A stretch of 64,000 nt of DNA from an uncultured Planctomycetia bacterium (GTDB taxonomy: Bacteria > Omnitrophota > Gorgyraeia > Duberdicusellales > 4484-171). Positions within the stretch are counted from its first letter, which is position 1. Each line of letters starts with the position of its first letter. The notes beneath the pieces were generated by a model that worked only from the letters and a program-made list of their open reading frames with translations, was not told the DNA's origin and searched no databases. Shown piece after piece: positions 14,064-39,879 of this stretch. The stretch is from assembly GCA_964629655.1 (NCBI GenBank), contig CAZVQU010000002.1:298840-362839 (forward strand), read 5' to 3'. A program made the translations under genes and the position numbers.

Positions 14064-15024
14064 TTGCCTTATTGAGCTCTTTTCTATTTACAGTTGCTGC
14101 TCCTAACTTACCGACTACAATTCCAGCAGCAAAATTCGCAATCATTGCCGCTTCTCTATAAGAGGCTCCGGCAGTCAGAGCTAAAGTAAAAGCAGAAATT
14201 ACTGTATCTCCGGCTCCGCTGACATCAAAAACCTCCAAGGCTGCTGTGGGAATATGATAATGGTCATTGCCGGAAAACAACATCATTCCATCTTCACCTA
14301 AGGTGATTAAAAGCGCCTTAGGGTTCAACTTCTTCATGATTATCTTGCCTAAGAAAAATAGCTGTTTCTTATTTCGTATCTTGATTCCGGCTGTAGCCTG
14401 GGCTTCCTTCAAATTAGGGGTAAGAGCAGTTACATTTTCATAGTAATCAAAGTGTTCCTCTTTGGGGTCAACAGTAATTACCTTCTTCTTCTTACGGCAC
14501 AAGTTTACTAACTCCTCAAGCAATAGAGGATTTATTACCCCTTTACCGTAATCTTCGACAATTACAGCATCAAAATCATCGAGGTTCTTCTTAATTTTAT
14601 TAAGAACCAGCTTATTTGTATTTGCCGAAAGAAATTCTAATGATTCCCAATCAACTCTTACCACTTGTTGATGGTGAGCAATTATTCTAGTCTTTAAGGT
14701 AGTCGGTCTCTTATTATCTCTAACAATCAAATCGGTAGAGATACCGCACTTACCAATAAGAGAAAATAAAGTTTTACCGAAATGATCCCTGCCAGTAACT
14801 CCGCAAAGACTCACCTTTGCCCCCATAGCGCTAAGGTTAAGGCCTACATTAGCAGCCCCTCCGGGAACGAAATTCTCCCGATTAGCCCAGACTACTGGAA
14901 CTGGAGCCTCTGGAGAAACCCGGTCAACGCTTCCAAAAATATGATGATCAAGAATCAAGTCTCCAACTACAAGGATTTTCTTATTCTTAAAACGAGAAGC
15001 GATATTTTTTAGCTTCTTCTTCAC
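14050..15024 (-). CDS. rfaE: D-beta-D-heptose 7-phosphate kinase (RfaE/HldE domain I, PfkB family carbohydrate kinase)
   Basis: 324 aa. PfkB ribokinase-like motifs (GGAANV..., DVSGAGDT). Starts on GTG with a GGGAGA RBS. LPS-core context. Confidence 0.8.
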   Translation of the reverse strand: MKKKLKNIASRFKNKKILVVGDLILDHHIFGSVDRVSPEAPVPVVWANRENFVPGGAANVGLNLSAMGAKVSLCGVTGRDHFGKTLFSLIGKCGISTDLIVRDNKRPTTLKTRIIAHHQQVVRVDWESLEFLSANTNKLVLNKIKKNLDDFDAVIVEDYGKGVINPLLLEELVNLCRKKKKVITVDPKEEHFDYYENVTALTPNLKEAQATAGIKIRNKKQLFFLGKIIMKKLNPKALLITLGEDGMMLFSGNDHYHIPTAALEVFDVSGAGDTVISAFTLALTAGASYREAAMIANFAAGIVVGKLGAATVNRKELNKAIDGN

Positions 15025-15074
15025 TGCTTTCTCCCTTTAAAATCAAGCCCTAAAGCTGCCAATATAACCAAACA

Positions 15075-15083
15075 ATTATACCA
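15075..15083 (-). promoter_or_regulatory. candidate extended -10 promoter element (TGGTATAAT on minus strand) upstream of rfaE
   Basis: Minus-strand TGGTATAAT (TGn + TATAAT) lies ~50 nt upstream of the rfaE GTG start. No good -35. Sits in an AT-rich region 15025-15224. Confidence 0.35.
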
Positions 15084-15224
15084 TTCTAATAGAAAAAATC
15101 TACAATAAAACTATATATTACTATATATATAATATGTACTGGTTTTAAAGGCTAAAATCGGTTGGACCAAGCTTAACCGCTAAAAAATAGCAGCTACCGG
15201 AAATCTGATTGTCGACGGAAAATA

Positions 15225-15389
15225 GAGGAATCCTTTAAGTGTAAATTCAATACTCCTTATTTATCAACATACAATACCAAAAGCTTTTTATGCGCCATAA
15301 TTTTAGCTGTACATTTTTTAGATTTAGTGACACATGAATGAGAATGTTTTGGAATTGGGCGGACACAGTTTAAGCACACACTTTGCCAT
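15225..15389 (-). repeat. repeat unit copy 1: small ORF + spacer + conserved 46-nt block
   Basis: Block 15225-15270 (plus: gaggaatcctttaagtgtaaattcaatactccttatttatcaacat) is 43/46 identical to 17355-17400. The 21-codon ORF at 15324-15389 is paralogous to the one at 17455-17526. Confidence 0.8.
15324..15389 (-). CDS. small ORF, 21 aa: MAKCVLKLCPPNSKTFSFMCH (conserved-motif peptide, paralog 1)
   Basis: Hand-translated from the reverse complement. ATG at 15389..15387, TAA at 15326..15324. It begins 33 nt downstream of the methyltransferase stop on the same strand. It shares K-L-C-P-x-N-x-K-T and a C-terminal H with the 17455..17526 ORF, with synonymous differences in the conserved codons (TGT/TGC, CCG/CCA, AAT/AAC). 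The RBS is weak: GAGAGG abuts the ATG. Confidence 0.45.
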   Translation of the reverse strand: MAKCVLKLCPPNSKTFSFMCH

Positions 15390-15422
15390 CCTCTCTAAAA
15401 GGAAGTATTTTGTAATGTAAGT

Positions 15423-16022
15423 TTAGTGGTAAGCTATTGCTATTTTCTGATAATCAGATTTATGTATGCCGACCTCAAAACCCTTGATTGTGAGGTAAGC
15501 TACTGCGACACCTAGCTTATCTTTCGGAAACACATGCTCTCTTCCTTCACTTTTGTGAATTCTTTCGATAAGCTTAAAACCTTCTTCAGTGAAATCGCTT
15601 AAGACAATCTTACCATTTTCTGAAAGAACTCTTGTCATTTCGTCTACAATTTTTTCCAAGCAAGACAAATGATGTAACGTGTTAATAGAAAAAATTGTGT
15701 CGAAAGCACCATCTTTAAAGCTTAAGTTCTCGGCATTCTCTATTTTAAAATCGACAGAATTTTCAATATCCAGGTACTTTATGTTAGACATTGCATAATT
15801 CTGCTCCTCTTCTGAAATATCAATGCTTGTTAGGCGACAACCTTTTTTAGCAAGCTGAATAGTAAAATATCCCTTACCAGTCCCTACCTCCAGAATCCTT
15901 CCGTTAATCGGTTTTGCTTTGTTAAAAATAAACTCTCTCTCTTCCTCTATGTCATAGCCAAAGCTCTTGTACAGCTTGATTCTCTCTAGGTAGTACTCAT
16001 AGCTATCAGCCACCTTATTCAT
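15423..16022 (-). CDS. class I SAM-dependent methyltransferase (Methyltransf_11/UbiE-like)
   Basis: 199 aa. Motif I ILEVGTGKGYFT, with downstream acidic and DGAFD motifs of Rossmann-fold MTases. Confidence 0.8.
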   Translation of the reverse strand: MNKVADSYEYYLERIKLYKSFGYDIEEEREFIFNKAKPINGRILEVGTGKGYFTIQLAKKGCRLTSIDISEEEQNYAMSNIKYLDIENSVDFKIENAENLSFKDGAFDTIFSINTLHHLSCLEKIVDEMTRVLSENGKIVLSDFTEEGFKLIERIHKSEGREHVFPKDKLGVAVAYLTIKGFEVGIHKSDYQKIAIAYH

Positions 16023-16054
16023 AAATTACCATTAATAGCATTAGTTGTAGTCGT

Positions 16055-16378
16055 TTAGAATGTAACAACCTTGTCGCTTTCCTTTATAATATCATACATA
16101 TCATTCATCGTGGAAATAGGGCACATTTCAGACACTTCTTGCTCCCTGGACTTAATACATGTTCCACAAGCATAGATTTTACCACCCGATTGCATAAGCT
16201 CTTCTACCTGTTTAATCGTATCGAACTTCTTGGTGCCAATCTTTTGGTATTCTACCCCTTTGCCCATAAAGAAAACCTTAACTTCGTCGCCATATTTTAA
16301 ACAAAATCTGGCATAGCGTAAAGCATTCCAGCAAGTTTCTGGATCATCGGATGAAATAATGACCCCTATCTTTCCCAT
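16055..16378 (-). CDS. DsrE/DsrF-like family small protein
   Basis: 107 aa. Begins MGKIGVIISSDDPE and has the CGTC motif of a DsrE-like fold. Strong RBS AAGGAGG 6 nt upstream. The call is from memory of the family pattern. Confidence 0.55.
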   Translation of the reverse strand: MGKIGVIISSDDPETCWNALRYARFCLKYGDEVKVFFMGKGVEYQKIGTKKFDTIKQVEELMQSGGKIYACGTCIKSREQEVSEMCPISTMNDMYDIIKESDKVVTF

Positions 16379-16390
16379 AGAAACCTCCTT

Positions 16391-16756
16391 TTAATGGCAA
16401 CCATGATCTACGCAAGCGTTGTCCACGGTGATTTCTTCTAATTTGCCTTGTTCATAACTCTCAATTATCTCATGGCCAACCTTAGCGCTCACCCTATAGG
16501 CCCTGATTCCGCTTTCGTTGAGTTTTTGAACAGCTCGTGCCCCCATTCCTCTGCAAACAACAGCATTAATAGTTTGGTTCTCTAATACTTTCAAAGGGTG
16601 ACACATCCCGTGCATATGATTCTTATCGCTATTATCTATAATCTCAAAATTCTTAGCTTCAGTATCATAAATAAGAAAATGTGCTGCGCTGCCAAAATGA
16701 TCAAATACTTTTGATTTTAGACCTTCATTGGTTTCTATTGGCATGCATATTTTCAT
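16391..16756 (-). CDS. NifX/NifB-like dinitrogenase iron-molybdenum cofactor family protein (PF02579-like)
   Basis: Likely start at the MKICMPIET methionine: ATG 16756..16754 overlaps the upstream gene's stop (TGATG), implying translational coupling. The track's ORF 16391..16774 has 6 extra codons. Family-typical small protein motifs (HFG.A..F.I.D, CRGMGARA). Confidence 0.7.
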   Translation of the reverse strand: MKICMPIETNEGLKSKVFDHFGSAAHFLIYDTEAKNFEIIDNSDKNHMHGMCHPLKVLENQTINAVVCRGMGARAVQKLNESGIRAYRVSAKVGHEIIESYEQGKLEEITVDNACVDHGCH

Positions 16757-17229
16757 CAGACTATCCTCCCGCATATACCTCTGCCACGCCCCACACCTCT
16801 ACCTGCTCTTACCCAACCTTTACTTTCTGAGGCTCTATGGATATTTGTACTCTTACATTTTAGGCACCCATTAGGCCTACCCGAACCATATGGCAAACTC
16901 CACTCATTCTTGCAATCATAACAAACAAAATGTCTCTCCACCATTTTCACTACACCTCCTTCTATTTTTAATGCTTTGCCATTAACTAATGCATCTGCTA
17001 TTTTCTTATGTGCAGAAGAAATTATATTCCCAAAGGTCTGTCTTGAAACATTCATTTTTCTAGCACTATCCTCTTGATACTTATCTTCTAAATCAGCAAG
17101 GCGTACTGCCTCAAGTTCATCCATCGTAAGATTCACTTCCCTCAATGCGTCAGTCGGAATGCCTTTCGGCTTAAAATAATTAGAGTCAGGTCTACAACAC
17201 ACTTTTCTCGGCCTACACGGTCTTGGCAT
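16756..17229 (-). CDS. DUF134 (UPF0251) family predicted DNA-binding protein with extra C-terminal zinc ribbon and Gly/Arg-rich tail
   Basis: 157 aa. N-terminus MPRPCRPRKVCCRPDSNYFKPKGIP is the DUF134 hallmark. An HTH-like segment follows (QEDSARKMNVSRQTFGNIISSAHKK). The C-terminus adds CYDC...CLKC (a C-x2-C...C-x2-C ribbon) and ends GRGVGRGRGICGRIV. Confidence 0.75.
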   Translation of the reverse strand: MPRPCRPRKVCCRPDSNYFKPKGIPTDALREVNLTMDELEAVRLADLEDKYQEDSARKMNVSRQTFGNIISSAHKKIADALVNGKALKIEGGVVKMVERHFVCYDCKNEWSLPYGSGRPNGCLKCKSTNIHRASESKGWVRAGRGVGRGRGICGRIV

Positions 17230-17244
17230 ATGGCCCCCTTTGTA

Positions 17245-17264
17245 TTATTAGCATATGCTAATAA
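17245..17264. promoter_or_regulatory. perfect 20-bp palindrome TTATTAGCATATGCTAATAA (candidate operator) overlapping the -10/TSS of the DUF134-operon promoter
   Basis: Verified base by base: 17245-17264 equals its own reverse complement. It overlaps the predicted -10 (17261-17266) and lies ~20 nt upstream of the DUF134 start codon. Confidence 0.6.
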
Positions 17265-17289
17265 TAACATACTTCTATCTATATGTCAA
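17261..17289 (-). promoter_or_regulatory. sigma70-like promoter for the DUF134-NifX-DsrE-MTase operon (-35 TTGACA, 17-nt spacer, -10 TATTAT)
   Basis: On the minus strand the -35 TTGACA is at 17289..17284, followed by a 17-nt spacer and the -10 TATTAT at 17266..17261. The RBS AAAGGGGG precedes the ATG at 17229. Confidence 0.55.
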
Positions 17290-17354
17290 GATTTCAAAAA
17301 GATAAAACCCCCTGCTATAAAGTTCTATAATAGGGAAAATGGATGCGGAGGGGA

Positions 17355-17526
17355 GAGGATTCCTTTAGATGTAAATTCAATACTCCTTATTTATCAACAT
17401 ATTATCAAGAAAGCCCTTTATTAGCAAGAATTTTTACTGTGCGATTGTTTACATTTAGTGACGTTTGTATGCAGATGTTTTGATGTTGGATGGGCACAGT
17501 TTGGGCACAAACTGATATGCGCCCAT
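17355..17526 (-). repeat. repeat unit copy 2: small ORF + spacer + conserved 46-nt block
   Basis: Block 17355-17400 is 43/46 identical to 15225-15270. The spacer is ~60% identical. The ORF is paralogous to copy 1. The flanking GGAGGGGAGAGGATTC (17347-17362) recurs at 19082-19097. Confidence 0.8.
17455..17526 (-). CDS. small ORF, 23 aa: MGAYQFVPKLCPSNIKTSAYKRH (conserved-motif peptide, paralog 2)
   Basis: Hand-translated. ATG at 17526..17524, TAA at 17457..17455. RBS AAGGAG sits 11 nt upstream. It begins 36 nt downstream of the 92-aa membrane protein gene stop. An in-frame upstream TAA bounds the ORF. Confidence 0.45.
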   Translation of the reverse strand: MGAYQFVPKLCPSNIKTSAYKRH

Positions 17527-17562
17527 TATTTAAACTGCTCCTTTACGCTAGGGTGGGTGAAA
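17527..17562 (-). repeat. duplicated 5' leader segment (gtaaaggagcagtttaaata + GCTAGG-TG-G), copy A, upstream of small ORF 2
   Basis: 20/20 identical to 17849-17868, with partial similarity continuing ~15 nt. Carries the AAGGAG RBS. Confidence 0.7.
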
Positions 17563-17841
17563 CTACCCGACAATAAGAAGTATAAAACTAAGAATGAAGA
17601 TAGTTACTCCACCGTACTTCAAAAATTTACCTATTTTCACAGGTTTAAAGACTCGAATTGTTTTATCTGGTGATTCTTTATCAAGCTTTATGCCTAAATT
17701 AACAAAATAAATTCCAGCCATTAGCATAAAAATATTATTTATTTTCTCTGCAATCTTACCGCCCAATCTAAAATACCCTGCAATTACACCAATGATAGCA
17801 AGAATAATCATCAATCCAACCAACCTTTTCTTCTCCATCAT
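17563..17841 (-). CDS. small integral membrane protein (3 predicted TM helices), unknown function
   Basis: 92 aa. Hydrophobic segments LVGLMIILAIIGVIAGYF, IFMLMAGIYFVNLGI and GVTIFILSFILLIVG. Strong RBS AGGAGGAATG. Confidence 0.5.
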   Translation of the reverse strand: MMEKKRLVGLMIILAIIGVIAGYFRLGGKIAEKINNIFMLMAGIYFVNLGIKLDKESPDKTIRVFKPVKIGKFLKYGGVTIFILSFILLIVG

Positions 17842-17848
17842 TCCTCCT

Positions 17849-17895
17849 TATTTAAACTGCTCCTTTACTTTGAATCCGCTAGGTTGAGACTATTC
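17849..17895 (-). repeat. duplicated 5' leader segment, copy B, upstream of the 92-aa membrane protein gene
   Basis: Identical 20-mer tatttaaactgctcctttac (plus strand) plus similar flanking sequence, as in 17527-17562. Confidence 0.7.
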
Positions 17896-18345
17896 TACAG
17901 TCCTAAATAATATCTCCCTTATAATAAATATCTTCCCCTTGTCTAGCGGTTTACCTGGTTTAATCATTTCGACAGAAAATATACCTTGGCATATTTTATC
18001 TTTAATTTCAAACGATTTTAACCATACCTGACGAACCCTATTACTAAAATTAATCTTAGCTTCGTGTTCTATTATGAGACCCTGCTTAGACGAAGCAACT
18101 TTATACCTAATTCTACGAGGTAAATCTTTATTTAACAACTCTCCATCAATTTCAGCTTTAATAATATACTTACCTCTGGGAAGAGAAAATTCTATAGAAT
18201 CTTTATCTCCTGCAGCATTCGGTAGAATTAGCTCTGTTTTATGAAGTGATTGGTTATAATATGCTCTCCAGACACTTCTTGTGCCAAACAAAACTATAAT
18301 AATAGCTAATACAATAAAGATTCCTATATTTAGTTTCCGCATCAT
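17890..18345 (-). CDS. signal-anchored/secreted hypothetical protein
   Basis: The track ORF is 173 aa. The likely true start is MMRKLNIGIFIVLAIIIVLFG (ATGATG at 18345..18340) preceded by a G-rich RBS. The upstream 22 codons (MGHIKR...) fall in the duplicated 5' region. No family recognised. Confidence 0.5.
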   Translation of the reverse strand: MMRKLNIGIFIVLAIIIVLFGTRSVWRAYYNQSLHKTELILPNAAGDKDSIEFSLPRGKYIIKAEIDGELLNKDLPRRIRYKVASSKQGLIIEHEAKINFSNRVRQVWLKSFEIKDKICQGIFSVEMIKPGKPLDKGKIFIIREILFRTVE

Positions 18346-18436
18346 CCCCCCCCTATCTCTTCTTTCCCTTCCTATATTGTTTCCAACAATCATTCTTTTG
18401 ATATGACCCATATCATTTAAATTACTTCTTGCCCCT

Positions 18437-18907
18437 TTACTTCAGTTCTGCCAAACCTCTCTCACATCCTCTTTTCCAAGCCTCTGTAAATCTCAACGCA
18501 ATCGATTTTTCAAAATTCTCTCTTTCAAAACCATCGAAGGTCTCTATCGTAGCCTTGATTTCTTTGATTTGCTCGTTTAATATTAGGATTGCTTTTTTAA
18601 AATTTTCTTTTGCCTTATCTTTCATGCCCACTTCTTTATAAGCCCAACCTAGCCTAGCATAACTCATATAATAATTCTTATCTAACCCTACAGCTTTTTC
18701 GTAAGACTCAATGGCCTTATGCAAGTCTTTCGCTTCCATGTATGCCGTTCCCAAAAGGTCCCAAGACATAGGATTATCTGGCGCCCTTTCTATCCCTTTT
18801 TTAGCCCAATCCATAAGTGACCCTTCCTCTGCGTATAGGCTACAAGATAGCAGCACACTTAATCCTACGAAACATATTATTAAGAATAATATTTTCTTCT
18901 TCATCAT
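18437..18907 (-). CDS. TPR-repeat lipoprotein
   Basis: 156 aa. Signal peptide + lipobox-like LLSCSLYA. TPR-like repeats (AYMEAKDLHKAIESYEKAVGLD, ARLGWAYKEVGMKDKAKENFKKAI). Its 5' UTR/start (ATGATGAAG with AAGGAGGG RBS) is DNA-similar to that of 17890..18345. Confidence 0.55.
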   Translation of the reverse strand: MMKKKILFLIICFVGLSVLLSCSLYAEEGSLMDWAKKGIERAPDNPMSWDLLGTAYMEAKDLHKAIESYEKAVGLDKNYYMSYARLGWAYKEVGMKDKAKENFKKAILILNEQIKEIKATIETFDGFERENFEKSIALRFTEAWKRGCERGLAELK

Positions 18908-18974
18908 CCCTCCTTATCTTTTCTTCCCCTTCCTGTATTGTTTTAAACACTAAAAAACAGTATACCACCCGAAA

Positions 18975-19100
18975 GGCTACTTTGATAGGCACAAAATGGG
19001 CACAAGAAAGAATTATTTTTTTGATGAAGTTGTAACTGACTGTACAAGAAGATGTTGTGAAGGCAAAAAACAAAAACGGAGGGGAGAGGATTCTCCGCGA
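18975..19100 (-). repeat. degenerate third copy of the small-ORF repeat family (ORF remnant without start codon) plus GGAGGGGAGAGGATTC motif
   Basis: Plus-strand gataggcacaaaatgggcacaag (18984-19006) matches copy 2's gatgggcacagtttgggcacaa. On the minus strand it reads ...FFLVPILCLSK* with an in-frame TAA upstream and no ATG. Plus 19082-19097 is identical to 17347-17362. Confidence 0.55.
19063..19098 (-). terminator. candidate intrinsic terminator downstream of hemW
   Basis: Minus-strand RNA cggag-aatcctctccc-ctccg is followed by tttttgtttttt, 50-85 nt after the hemW stop. The stem is only 5 bp (GC-rich). Confidence 0.4.
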
Positions 19101-19148
19101 CTTGAACACGTGGACTATTAAAATAAGTAAGGGTAAACCTCAATCTTT

Positions 19149-39804: not shown

Positions 39805-39879
39805 TGGTTGCCCGGCCTGGACTCGAACCAGGAAACTCAGCTCCAAAAGCTGATGTGTTACCGATTACACTACCGGGCA
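39805..39879 (-). tRNA. tRNA-Gln (anticodon TTG)
   Basis: Reverse complement reads TGCCCGGTAGTGTAATCGGTAACACATCAGCTTTTGGAGCTGAG...CCTGGTTCGAGTCCAGGCCGGGCAACCA. It has the anticodon loop CT-TTG-GA, a T-arm GGTTCGAGTCC and an encoded CCA end. Confidence 0.85.

Follow-up and report, generated by a model that had tools for sequence, protein, structure and literature searches.

A candidate modular intergenic regulatory repeat beneath two paralogous micro-ORFs of a Candidatus Omnitrophota genome

The question raised by this locus is whether two short open reading frames (ORFs), of 21 and 23 codons, encode a conserved peptide or lie over conserved non-coding DNA. The ORFs belong to two copies of a ~170-bp unit on the minus strand of a 64,000-nt stretch of an Omnitrophota genome (contig CAZVQU010000002.1, positions 298,840 to 362,839; the whole stretch is referred to here as the window), and in each unit the ORF is followed by a spacer of ~55 nt and a nearly identical block of 46 nt. 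An initial annotation read the ORFs as a possible small-protein family, perhaps precursors resembling those of ribosomally synthesized and post-translationally modified peptides (RiPPs), under selection for a K-L-C-P-x-N-x-K-T...H motif and co-transcribed with the gene upstream. We find that the repeat is real and its block strongly constrained, and that the micro-protein reading is not supported. On balance, and with a little more than even confidence, we favor a reading in which the units belong to a modular regulatory repeat that is intergenic and non-coding and is known to date from three Candidatus Omnitrophota genomes. The 'conserved peptide' is most likely a by-product of conserved DNA motifs that, read as codons, would give the same translation in any copy.

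The two units and their reading frames

Both copies of the unit were present where the initial annotation had placed them, u1 at 15225-15389 and u2 at 17355-17526 of the minus strand, and both ORFs have the translations given there. The units are co-oriented and can be aligned over ~170 nt with a single 1-nt indel; a repeat search of the window returned them as a direct repeat of 96 nt with 78% identity. Identity is ~70% in the 5' half and higher toward the 3' part, where 31 consecutive nucleotides are the same in both units. Across the 64 kb the 28-mer TTGATAAATAAGGAGTATTGAATTTACA has two exact matches, one in each unit, against a chance expectation of 0.00, and nhmmer recovered the two window copies with E-values of 1e-63 and, for u2, 6e-68. 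Reading 5' to 3', u2 consists of a Shine-Dalgarno (SD)-like prefix GTAAAGGAGCAGTTTAAATA, a direct repeat, a variable stretch, a promoter-like -35/-10 pair, the invariant core and a CU-rich tract (Table 1); u1 has no SD-like prefix and its -35 is degenerate. Searching the whole window against Rfam at gathering thresholds gave a tRNA gene as the sole match (39808-39879, minus strand, 66.5 bits), and at E ≤ 10 over 14900-17900 no Rfam match overlapped either unit. Folding of the whole units on both strands gave z-scores of ~0, no better than shuffled sequence.

Table 1. Positions of the units, their parts and associated features in the window
Feature	Position	Strand	Basis or remark
Unit u2, whole	17338..17550	-	Alignments; nhmmer E 6e-68; covariance model R1, 77 bits over 17338-17398
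Unit u1, whole	15208..15380	-	Alignments, nhmmer; covariance model R1, 74 bits over 15208-15268
23-codon ORF MGAYQFVPKLCPSNIKTSAYKRH (u2)	17455-17526	-	Judged incidental
21-codon ORF MAKCVLKLCPPNSKTFSFMCH (u1)	15324-15389	-	Judged incidental
Direct repeat TGTGCC-CAAAC-TGTGCC, u2	17493..17509	-	As codons, the 'P-K-L-C-P' of the annotated peptide
Direct repeat, u1, diverged: TGTGCT-TAAAC-TGTGTC (3 mismatches)	15362..15378	-	Motif scan
Promoter-like TTGCTA, 15-17 nt, GATAAT or TAATAT, u2	17399..17427	-	Read from sequence; homologous to the L023 and L009 copy B promoters
Extended -10-like box TGgTATTGT, u1	15271..15279	-	Read from sequence; TGGCGC, degenerate, at the -35 position
Invariant 28-nt core TTGATAAATAAGGAGTATTGAATTTACA, u2	17370..17397	-	Heart of the 46-nt block; putative first transcribed bases
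28-nt core TTGATAAATAAGGAGTATTGAATTTACA, u1	15240..15267	-	Exact-word scan
Small hairpin AGG-A-GUA / UUGAAUU / UAC-A-UCU	17367..17387 (u2); 15237-15257 (u1)	-	Predicted fold; pairs the SD-like AGGAG
CU-rich tract GAATCCTCTCCCCTCCGC, u2	17345..17362	-	Alignment
CU-rich tract TTCCTCTATTTTCC, u1	15217-15232	-	Alignment
Terminator-like hairpin CCCUAUUAUAG...UAUAGCAGGG, then GGUUUUAUCUUUUU	17296..17335	-	Fold -10.9 kcal/mol; 3' of u2, just before the DUF134 operon promoter
Partial copy GCGGAG-AATCCTCTCCC-CTCCG plus U-run	19065..19098	-	Covariance model R1, 20.6 bits, E 0.1, over 19069-19124
Type-2 promoter and leader of TPR gene	18908..19004	-	Repeat 19004-18988, 23 nt, TATACT, inverted repeat, purine-rich GGAAGGGGAA leader, ATG at 18907
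Variable ~4-kb segment between HemN-like gene and RfaE promoter	15166..19148	-	Without counterpart in close relatives

Five full copies of the element were found in three Omnitrophota genomes: u1 and u2, copies A and B on contig L009, and one copy on contig L023; a sixth copy, in the window at 19069-19124, is partial. An exact-word scan of genome contigs for the core returned one other organism, the metagenome-assembled contig L007, and the same scan of metagenome contigs returned L009, a longer contig of the same sequence, together with three chance matches that are ordinary sites of a ribosome-binding site (RBS) plus ATG. Copy A is therefore present on L007 as well. Homologs of RfaE place the window genome in the Omnitrophota, and homologs of ABC-F do the same for the L009 organism. 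A profile search placed copy A at 8445-8262 and copy B at 3051-2972 of L009. The copy of the third genome, whose ABC-F protein is 92% identical to that of L009, lies at 2367-2601 of L023. No copies were found at other Omnitrophota loci (~200 kb from nine) or at the syntenic loci of relatives (L012-L022, L024, L025 and L028-L030), and the core had no match in viral contigs (exact pattern) or in phages and plasmids (blastn). All five full copies are oriented like both flanking genes, and the flanking genes are unrelated among copies. A conserved gene-plus-tail unit was considered and rejected, the upstream membrane proteins (92 aa vs 175 aa) sharing no homology. The same contigs gave one side observation: L028 begins 44 nt upstream of the CvfB gene, near the expected position of copy A.

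Several features speak for a micro-protein. Both ORFs are bounded and share a stop codon inside a conserved GTCACTAAAT, the frame stays open through PKLCLPYSKT in L009 copy A, a methyltransferase gene adjoins, and the ratio of non-synonymous to synonymous substitution (dN/dS, Nei-Gojobori) is lowest in the ORF frame, at 0.39 as opposed to 0.65 and 0.89 in the other two. The last figure rests on ~5.5 synonymous and ~9.5 non-synonymous changes, however, and is not significant, because ~3.4 synonymous changes are already expected by chance. Of the 15 differences between the ORFs, 4 are at the first, 5 at the second and 6 at the third codon position, and the three synonymous codons that had suggested selection on the peptide are the outcome that 15 random changes would yield. 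Where the two ORFs can be aligned, over 54 nt (GTG...TAA), 39 positions agree (72%, instead of the ~60% first estimated). Their N-terminal parts, including both ATGs, cannot be aligned, so that the start codons are non-homologous. The u1 ORF starts 33 nt past the stop of the methyltransferase gene (15423-16022) and the u2 ORF 36 nt past the stop of the 92-aa membrane-protein gene (17563-17841), each with a poor RBS: GAGAGG abutting the ATG in u1 (spacing 0) and AAGGAG 11 nt from the ATG in u2. Because all three reading frames are open over this stretch in both copies, the presence of an ORF there is unremarkable. A second frame yields an equally 'conserved' MC(P/L)NC peptide, the expected product of conservation at the nucleotide level. 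No RiPP core enzyme lies nearby, the neighbors being DUF134, Nitro_FeMo-Co, DsrE, class I methyltransferase, TPR and unannotated membrane proteins.

The copies outside the window argue further against translation. In L009 copy A the ORF has no ATG, its Pro and Asn are replaced by Leu (CTA) and Tyr (TAT), and its C-terminus is lost to other residues through a 20-nt non-triplet deletion; in L023 the ORF region is reduced to 17 nt (...PKLCP...) followed by unrelated sequence; and in L009 copy B the whole 5' half, with the ORF region, is gone. The block is intact in all three. Homologs with a broken ORF and an intact block were what the initial annotation had named as refuting its peptide claim, and their occurrence in three copies from two other genomes largely refutes it already. 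We therefore consider a conserved micro-protein or RiPP-like precursor highly improbable, and the non-coding verdict covers the ORFs of the candidate peptides MAKCVLKLCPPNSKTFSFMCH, MGAYQFVPKLCPSNIKTSAYKRH and MNLHLKESSPLRIHFPYYRTL.

What is retained of the ORF is a DNA motif. The KLCP codons coincide with a direct repeat, TGTGCC-N5-TGTGCC, with an 11-nt period. The 17-nt repeat is identical at 17/17 positions in u2, L009 copy A and L023, and since both of its flanks are unrelated in L023, conservation attaches to the 17-mer as such. With another spacer, the repeat is found at promoters in non-coding sequence too, where no ORF logic applies (see below).

Core, predicted hairpin and putative promoter

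The constraint on nucleotides that the initial annotation proposed for the 46-nt block is borne out. Conservation among the five full copies is island-like, the core being identical at 28/28 positions in three of them, including one from a different genome, and at 27/28 and 26/28 in the other two. The invariant part is a core of 23-28 nt with a perfect SD-like UAAGGAG, standing at the start of a block of ~55 bases. UAAGGAG is followed by UUG at 2 nt, by no AUG and by no start codon at a usable spacing. The predicted small hairpin that pairs the SD-like sequence is the minimum-energy fold of the first 34 nt in four of the five copies, with the outer stem shifted in u1. Its pairing is compatible with 29 of 30 cells of the alignment, vs 23-60% for controls in which the 3' partners were shifted along the sequence. 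The L023 core carries just two substitutions, and these affect both members of a single pair (U-A to A-U); two other changes turn G-C into G-U, and wherever a variable position faces G it holds C or U alone, a pattern consistent with RNA on this strand. Downstream of the hairpin, the CU-rich tract GAATCCTCTCCCCTCC is complementary to the purine block of the core. The same tract is found in L023 and at window 19077-19092, and the predicted folds of u1 and L023 pair the 5' AUAAAUAAGGAG with it.

All three copies outside the window have a -35/-10 pair at a fixed position, 2-3 nt upstream of the core. In u2 the pair is weaker, and u1 has an extended -10-like box only. The L023 pair is TTGACA-16-TATAAT (12/12 consensus), that of L009 copy B is TTGTAA-16-TATAAT (10/12), and that of L009 copy A is TTGTAT-17-TATAAT with a TG-extended -10. 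The u2 pair matches at only ~8/12 and was not listed by the promoter scan. Thus sigma-70-type hexamers 16-18 nt apart are present in the L009 clade and weak in the window. Upon inspection of the alignment, which was not quantified, the hexamers were kept and most of the sequence between them was not, except for ATAAAG next to the -35. For this reason we read the ~55-nt 'spacer' as a putative sigma-70-type promoter and the 46-nt block as the first bases that would be transcribed from it. Two further promoter assignments were rejected: a sigma-28 reading (TAAA...TTGATAA), in which inspection gave a spacing of 17-18 nt and not 15, and a promoter inside the core (TTGATA-18-TACACT, flagged by the scan), whose -10 is not conserved in other copies. 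Copy B sits behind the strong 13-bp intrinsic terminator of the upstream gene. The proposed co-transcription with the upstream gene is thus possible for the window copies, where no terminator intervenes, and does not hold in general.

Together these features would describe a regulatory element with the following parts. The direct repeat would be a transcription-factor site and, with the sequence that follows it, may represent a decayed repeat-dependent promoter. The promoter in the 'spacer' would launch an RNA that begins with the core, its UAAGGAG partly paired in the hairpin, and continues into the CU-rich tract. This RNA would be either a 5' leader, belonging to the downstream operon, or a short species of ~55-130 nt; it may be short at some loci and a leader at others, because second promoters and terminator-like hairpins follow only some copies. 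An SD mimic in a weak hairpin combined with an anti-SD-like tract could set RNA stability or ribosome access, and stabilization of the STAB-SD type (see below), occlusion and attenuation are possible modes. The initial annotation had also offered a small-ORF/RNA regulatory module; its regulatory-module part comes closest to our result, and its small-ORF part does not stand.

A number of observations weigh against this reading. There are only five full copies, three of them from closely related genomes, which makes every comparative statistic weak. With energies between -2.2 and -4.8 kcal/mol and z-scores between -0.35 and -1.76, the hairpins do not differ significantly from shuffles, and in a shuffle control with the five sequences the observed value was reached in 115 of 500 trials. 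Moreover, a hairpin of 6 bp leaves the invariant loop and 5' flank unexplained, which makes a sequence-specific partner, protein or RNA, likely. The promoter hexamers are weakest in the window (u2 ~8/12, u1 without a -35) and yet the core is perfect there, indicating that the core may not depend on the promoter next to it. Behind three of the five copies stands another promoter, stronger and nearer the downstream gene (window 17289-17261, TTGACA-17-TATTAT, 11/12, for the DUF134 operon; the RfaE promoter at ~15083-15075; and L009 2945-2916), and it would accordingly be too simple to call the element the promoter of the next gene. Finally, a terminator-like structure stands behind only two or three copies.

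Other readings of the block were weighed against the same evidence. It could hold a micro-ORF of 15-22 codons starting at the UUG in the hairpin loop, MN(L/I/F)H(L/Q)x(E/D/V)SS(P)(L/F)(R/H)..., a leader peptide gated by the SD-sequestering hairpin. This frame is open for 18, 21, 19, 22 and 15 codons in the five copies, its variable core-proximal positions are synonymous (CAC/CAT; TTA/CTA/CTG), L009 copy A and L023 differ by an in-frame 3-nt indel, and a strong UAAGGAG lies immediately upstream. The gap from SD to UUG is only 2 nt, however, and openness is expected of a tract made up largely of C and U, in which no stop codon is possible. Stop positions are not conserved, between L009 copy A and L023 the nucleotide sequence is just as conserved beyond the stops, and the compensatory pair of L023 consists of one base outside the ORF and one non-synonymous change inside it, which structure fits better than coding does. 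Such a leader peptide seems to us quite improbable, less so only than the micro-protein. We place slightly more weight, while still judging it unlikely, on a trans-acting small RNA of ~55-130 nt whose CU-rich tract (UCCUCUCCCCUCC) would pair with purine-rich ribosome-binding regions, for example those of mRNAs with the GGAAGGGGAA leader (leader-2) described below. The promoter and conserved 5' part are consistent with a small RNA, as are terminator-like hairpins with U-runs behind u2 (17335-17296) and L009 copy A (8219-8202), pairing of the L023 5' end with CUCCGUUUUUAU, and the fact that CU-rich elements occur in the same genomes, and in the same segment, as GA-rich leaders. Against it, there is no terminator behind L009 copy B or L023, the most conserved part is the core and not the CU tract, and there is no Rfam match. 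Targeting of leader-2 by the CU tract was set aside as unsupported: duplexes with three leader-2 sequences were no better than those with shuffled leaders (z +0.8 to -1.9).

The element might also act as DNA, the core or direct repeat being a recombination or transposition site of a small non-autonomous mobile element or cassette, or the core a repressor operator over the transcription start. In favor of a DNA-level role, direct copies with a 31-nt identical core bracket a 2,130-bp cassette of four genes, from DUF134 to methyltransferase; all copies in the window genome fall inside a ~4-kb segment that relatives lack; copies stand at unrelated loci in different genomes in uniform orientation; and the core contains an inverted repeat, AGGnGTA-N7-TACnCCT. 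In addition, a protein of DUF134, a family of unknown function in Pfam that we take to be generally predicted as DNA-binding, is encoded between the copies. The units have no terminal inverted repeats and no recognizable target-site duplications, however, and integrase and transposase genes are absent from 15-19 kb. By inspection the core fits neither the 11-6-11 architecture of dif nor the R/L architecture of attC, and C/U variation opposite G spoils a DNA palindrome while sparing RNA pairing. Contigs of ~2,160 nt in the Logan assemblies are the expected output of a k=31 graph at any 31-nt repeat and give no evidence of a circular form. An explanation at the DNA level thus has, in our view, a small probability, on a par with that of the small RNA. 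Specific candidates were discarded along the way: a miniature inverted-repeat transposable element or other insertion sequence derivative (a repeat search found no inverted repeats within or around the units, and the alignments no duplicated flank), a dif site (the core arms match at only ~6/11 positions, and there is no integrase among the ORFs at 13-20 kb), an attC site (GTTGATA and not GTTRRRY; L009 has ATTGATA) and a type I toxin (defining features absent). As to the assemblies themselves, Logan contigs L001-L006, from the same genome, end exactly at the 31-nt identical run, where the repeat breaks k=31 assemblies; L001 (2,160 nt) and L002 (2,158 nt) approximate the 2,130-nt repeat spacing plus k-1.

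A bolder form of the regulatory-repeat reading is that core and CU tract constitute an undescribed, Omnitrophota-specific riboregulator, either an RNA, short or a leader, whose SD mimic UAAGGAG and anti-SD-like tract compete with one another or for ribosomes, or a hairpin-gated leader peptide of 15-22 codons (MNxHLxESSPLR), wired to a transcription factor that binds the direct repeat and spreading with small cassettes. To this we would give only a slim chance.

Direct repeats, type-2 promoters and the surrounding segment

Six sites with TGTGCC-N5-TGTGCC were identified, all intergenic and all oriented like the downstream gene; no further instance of the direct repeat occurred in the 313 kb scanned. 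A variant with the spacer CATTT (TGTGCC-CATTT-TGTGCC) is found at window 19004-18988 and at L007 329-345, with a -10 box (TATACT or TATAAT) following at a distance of exactly 23 nt in both. These promoters, here called type-2, have no recognizable -35. Such 11-nt-phased direct repeats by promoters are the classical form of a winged-helix response regulator site, and the repeat is most likely a recognition site for a DNA-binding protein. Within the units the distance from repeat start to core start is variable, ~105-175 nt, and so is the intervening content. In viral contigs the 17-mer gave 11 matches, all unrelated (codons of CPNC zinc knuckles, or 11-nt tandem iteron-like repeats in GC-rich phage contigs). 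The 11-mer TGTGCCCAAAC occurs there as 2-3 tandem copies (L032, L035, L039 and L040 at ~3060, L033 at 6979, L037 at 158 and L041 at 35). In one viral group the tandem lies inside a gene taken, from the gene sequence alone, as replication-related, and in L033 it adjoins an integrase gene and an apparent tRNA gene. These viral tandems look iteron-type and are probably unrelated to the Omnitrophota motif.

The arrangement at the window site of the type-2 promoter recurs almost identically at L007 329-427 (plus strand). The order is direct repeat, 23 nt, TATAAT or TATACT, an inverted repeat ATTGTTT...AAACAAT over the likely start, the GGAAGGGGAA tract, a strong SD and ATG. Sites of this family comprise window 18908-19004 and 18345-18400 (both minus strand), L007 329-427 (plus strand) and L009 9522-9612 (minus strand); the direct repeat is present at window 19004 and L007 329 only, and 18345-18400 and the L009 site consist of the -10 and leader with no clear repeat. 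In the window, type-2 sites head the TPR gene and a 151/173-aa membrane-protein gene; the L009 site heads a zinc-ribbon membrane protein and the L007 site a hydrophobic ORF of 25 codons, MKRLFILIVISVILLRTVSDAHTKF.

The partial copy, which the initial annotation had not seen and which was found with a covariance model, lacks the core and corresponds to the CU-rich module. Its predicted fold is a stem of 6 bp and a U-tail, ~50 nt past the stop of the HemN-like gene, for which it probably serves as terminator; comparison with L023 suggests a deletion between two AGAAT repeats. To its 3' side lies a stretch shared by L009 copy A, L023 and L007 (...AGTTACAAC), and beyond this come the direct repeat and the TPR gene's type-2 promoter. 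The shared stretch and the modules point to a longer composite, in the order repeat, promoter, core, CU tract, shared stretch, repeat, -10 and leader-2, of which different loci hold different parts. Copy B consists of promoter, core and CU tract only, and in L023 the direct repeat is parted from promoter and core by unrelated DNA. The shared non-coding stretch, CCGTTTTTAT.TTTAGCATTTGCAAC...ATTCAATAAGTTACAAC, is located at L009 8262-8200 (minus strand), L023 2590-2640 (plus strand), L007 262-300 (plus strand) and window 19076-19035 (minus strand); it stands after the CU-rich tract in some copies and before a type-2 promoter in others, and its ATTCAATA is complementary to the core loop UAUUGAAU in L009 copy A and L023.

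Within ~80 kb of the genome, every copy of the core, the direct repeat and leader-2 sits inside the ~4-kb segment between the HemN-like gene and the RfaE promoter. In relatives whose RfaE is 84-91% identical the gap between HemN and RfaE is only 180-485 nt and carries no element. These relatives retain the RfaE promoter TGGTATAAT, found in the window at 15083-15075 on the downstream side of u1. By its content and distribution the segment suggests a horizontally acquired islet. It shares motif copies with a different Omnitrophota lineage (L009 and L023). No integrase gene was present among the ORFs at 13-20 kb. By Pfam, the segment holds the TPR gene, the genes for the 173-aa and 92-aa proteins, u2, the DUF134, NifX-like, DsrE and methyltransferase genes, and u1. 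The DUF134 gene (16756-17229, minus strand) heads the four-gene cassette (DUF134, Nitro_FeMo-Co, DsrE and methyltransferase) flanked by u2 and u1, and its product has a C-terminal extension with two CxxC pairs (CYDCKNEW...CLKCKS) that is probably a zinc ribbon. The segment's 151-aa protein matched nothing but itself in a homolog search, and a look-up of the 92-aa protein, made for presence/absence polymorphism of the cassette, returned no record. Two relatives (L012 9700-9850 and L020 4000-4100) carry a different repeat between HemN and RfaE (...GGGTGTACCTTT...AATAGGACG(T/C)CTGC...), and this intergenic region seems to be a hotspot of small repeats across the clade.

Comparison with known systems

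In the literature searched we found no papers on promoters or intergenic elements in Candidatus Omnitrophota. If the favored reading is correct, the locus holds no new peptide family and would instead provide some of the first concrete cis-regulatory motifs for this uncultured phylum: a sigma-70 promoter close to consensus, an invariant leader of 28 nt that contains an SD-like hairpin, and an 11-nt-phased repeat that marks a second promoter class. These motifs could be used as search patterns for regulons and for recently acquired segments. The locus also carries a lesson, that in a comparison of two copies short conserved DNA motifs can mimic 'conserved micro-peptides'.

Parts of the element resemble systems described elsewhere. 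Pho-box and other OmpR-PhoB operators consist of two direct repeats of 6-7 bp with an 11-bp period next to a -10 box. TGTGCC-N5-TGTGCC has exactly this period and, at two type-2 promoters without a -35, the fixed distance of 23 nt to the -10; in the units, by contrast, the repeat is 44-131 nt from the -35 and no good -10 is found at 23 nt. The core recalls SD-sequestering hairpins such as fourU and ROSE thermometers and translational operators in its weak hairpin (-2 to -5 kcal/mol) and in the pairing of AGGAG with a pyrimidine-rich 3' strand that includes G-U pairs. It differs from them in that its SD has no start codon 5-9 nt downstream and that the next gene is >100 nt away, often with a promoter of its own. 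With small RNAs that have their own promoter inside 3' untranslated regions, such as DapZ and MicL, u2 shares a position directly after a stop codon, an internal promoter-like site and then a terminator-like hairpin that would be common to it and the upstream gene, an architecture that is not retained in the other copies.

A further parallel is the stabilizing SD (STAB-SD), an SD-like sequence near the 5' end of an mRNA that has no translation start, binds 30S subunits and blocks RNase J1 (PMC4113751). Consistent with this type of element, UAAGGAG would lie ~7-12 nt from the putative 5' end with no usable start codon at normal spacing, and can be ~115-290 nt from the start of the next gene. 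Unlike a STAB-SD, the SD of the core is predicted to be partly paired and is embedded in 28 nt of invariant sequence, far beyond the needs of an SD.

As a whole, the element is closest in kind to the Correia elements of Neisseria, the pneumococcal BOX elements and the enterobacterial ERIC and REP sequences, which are likewise multi-copy, strictly intergenic and built of modules in varying combinations, some of which supply a promoter or terminator. The units differ from these in having neither terminal inverted repeats nor a target-site duplication, in their low copy number (5-6 in ~100 kb of three genomes), in their uniform orientation to genes and in islands far more conserved than the rest. 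Overall, the element would appear to be an undescribed member, of narrow known distribution, of a familiar class, the dispersed modular intergenic regulatory repeats.

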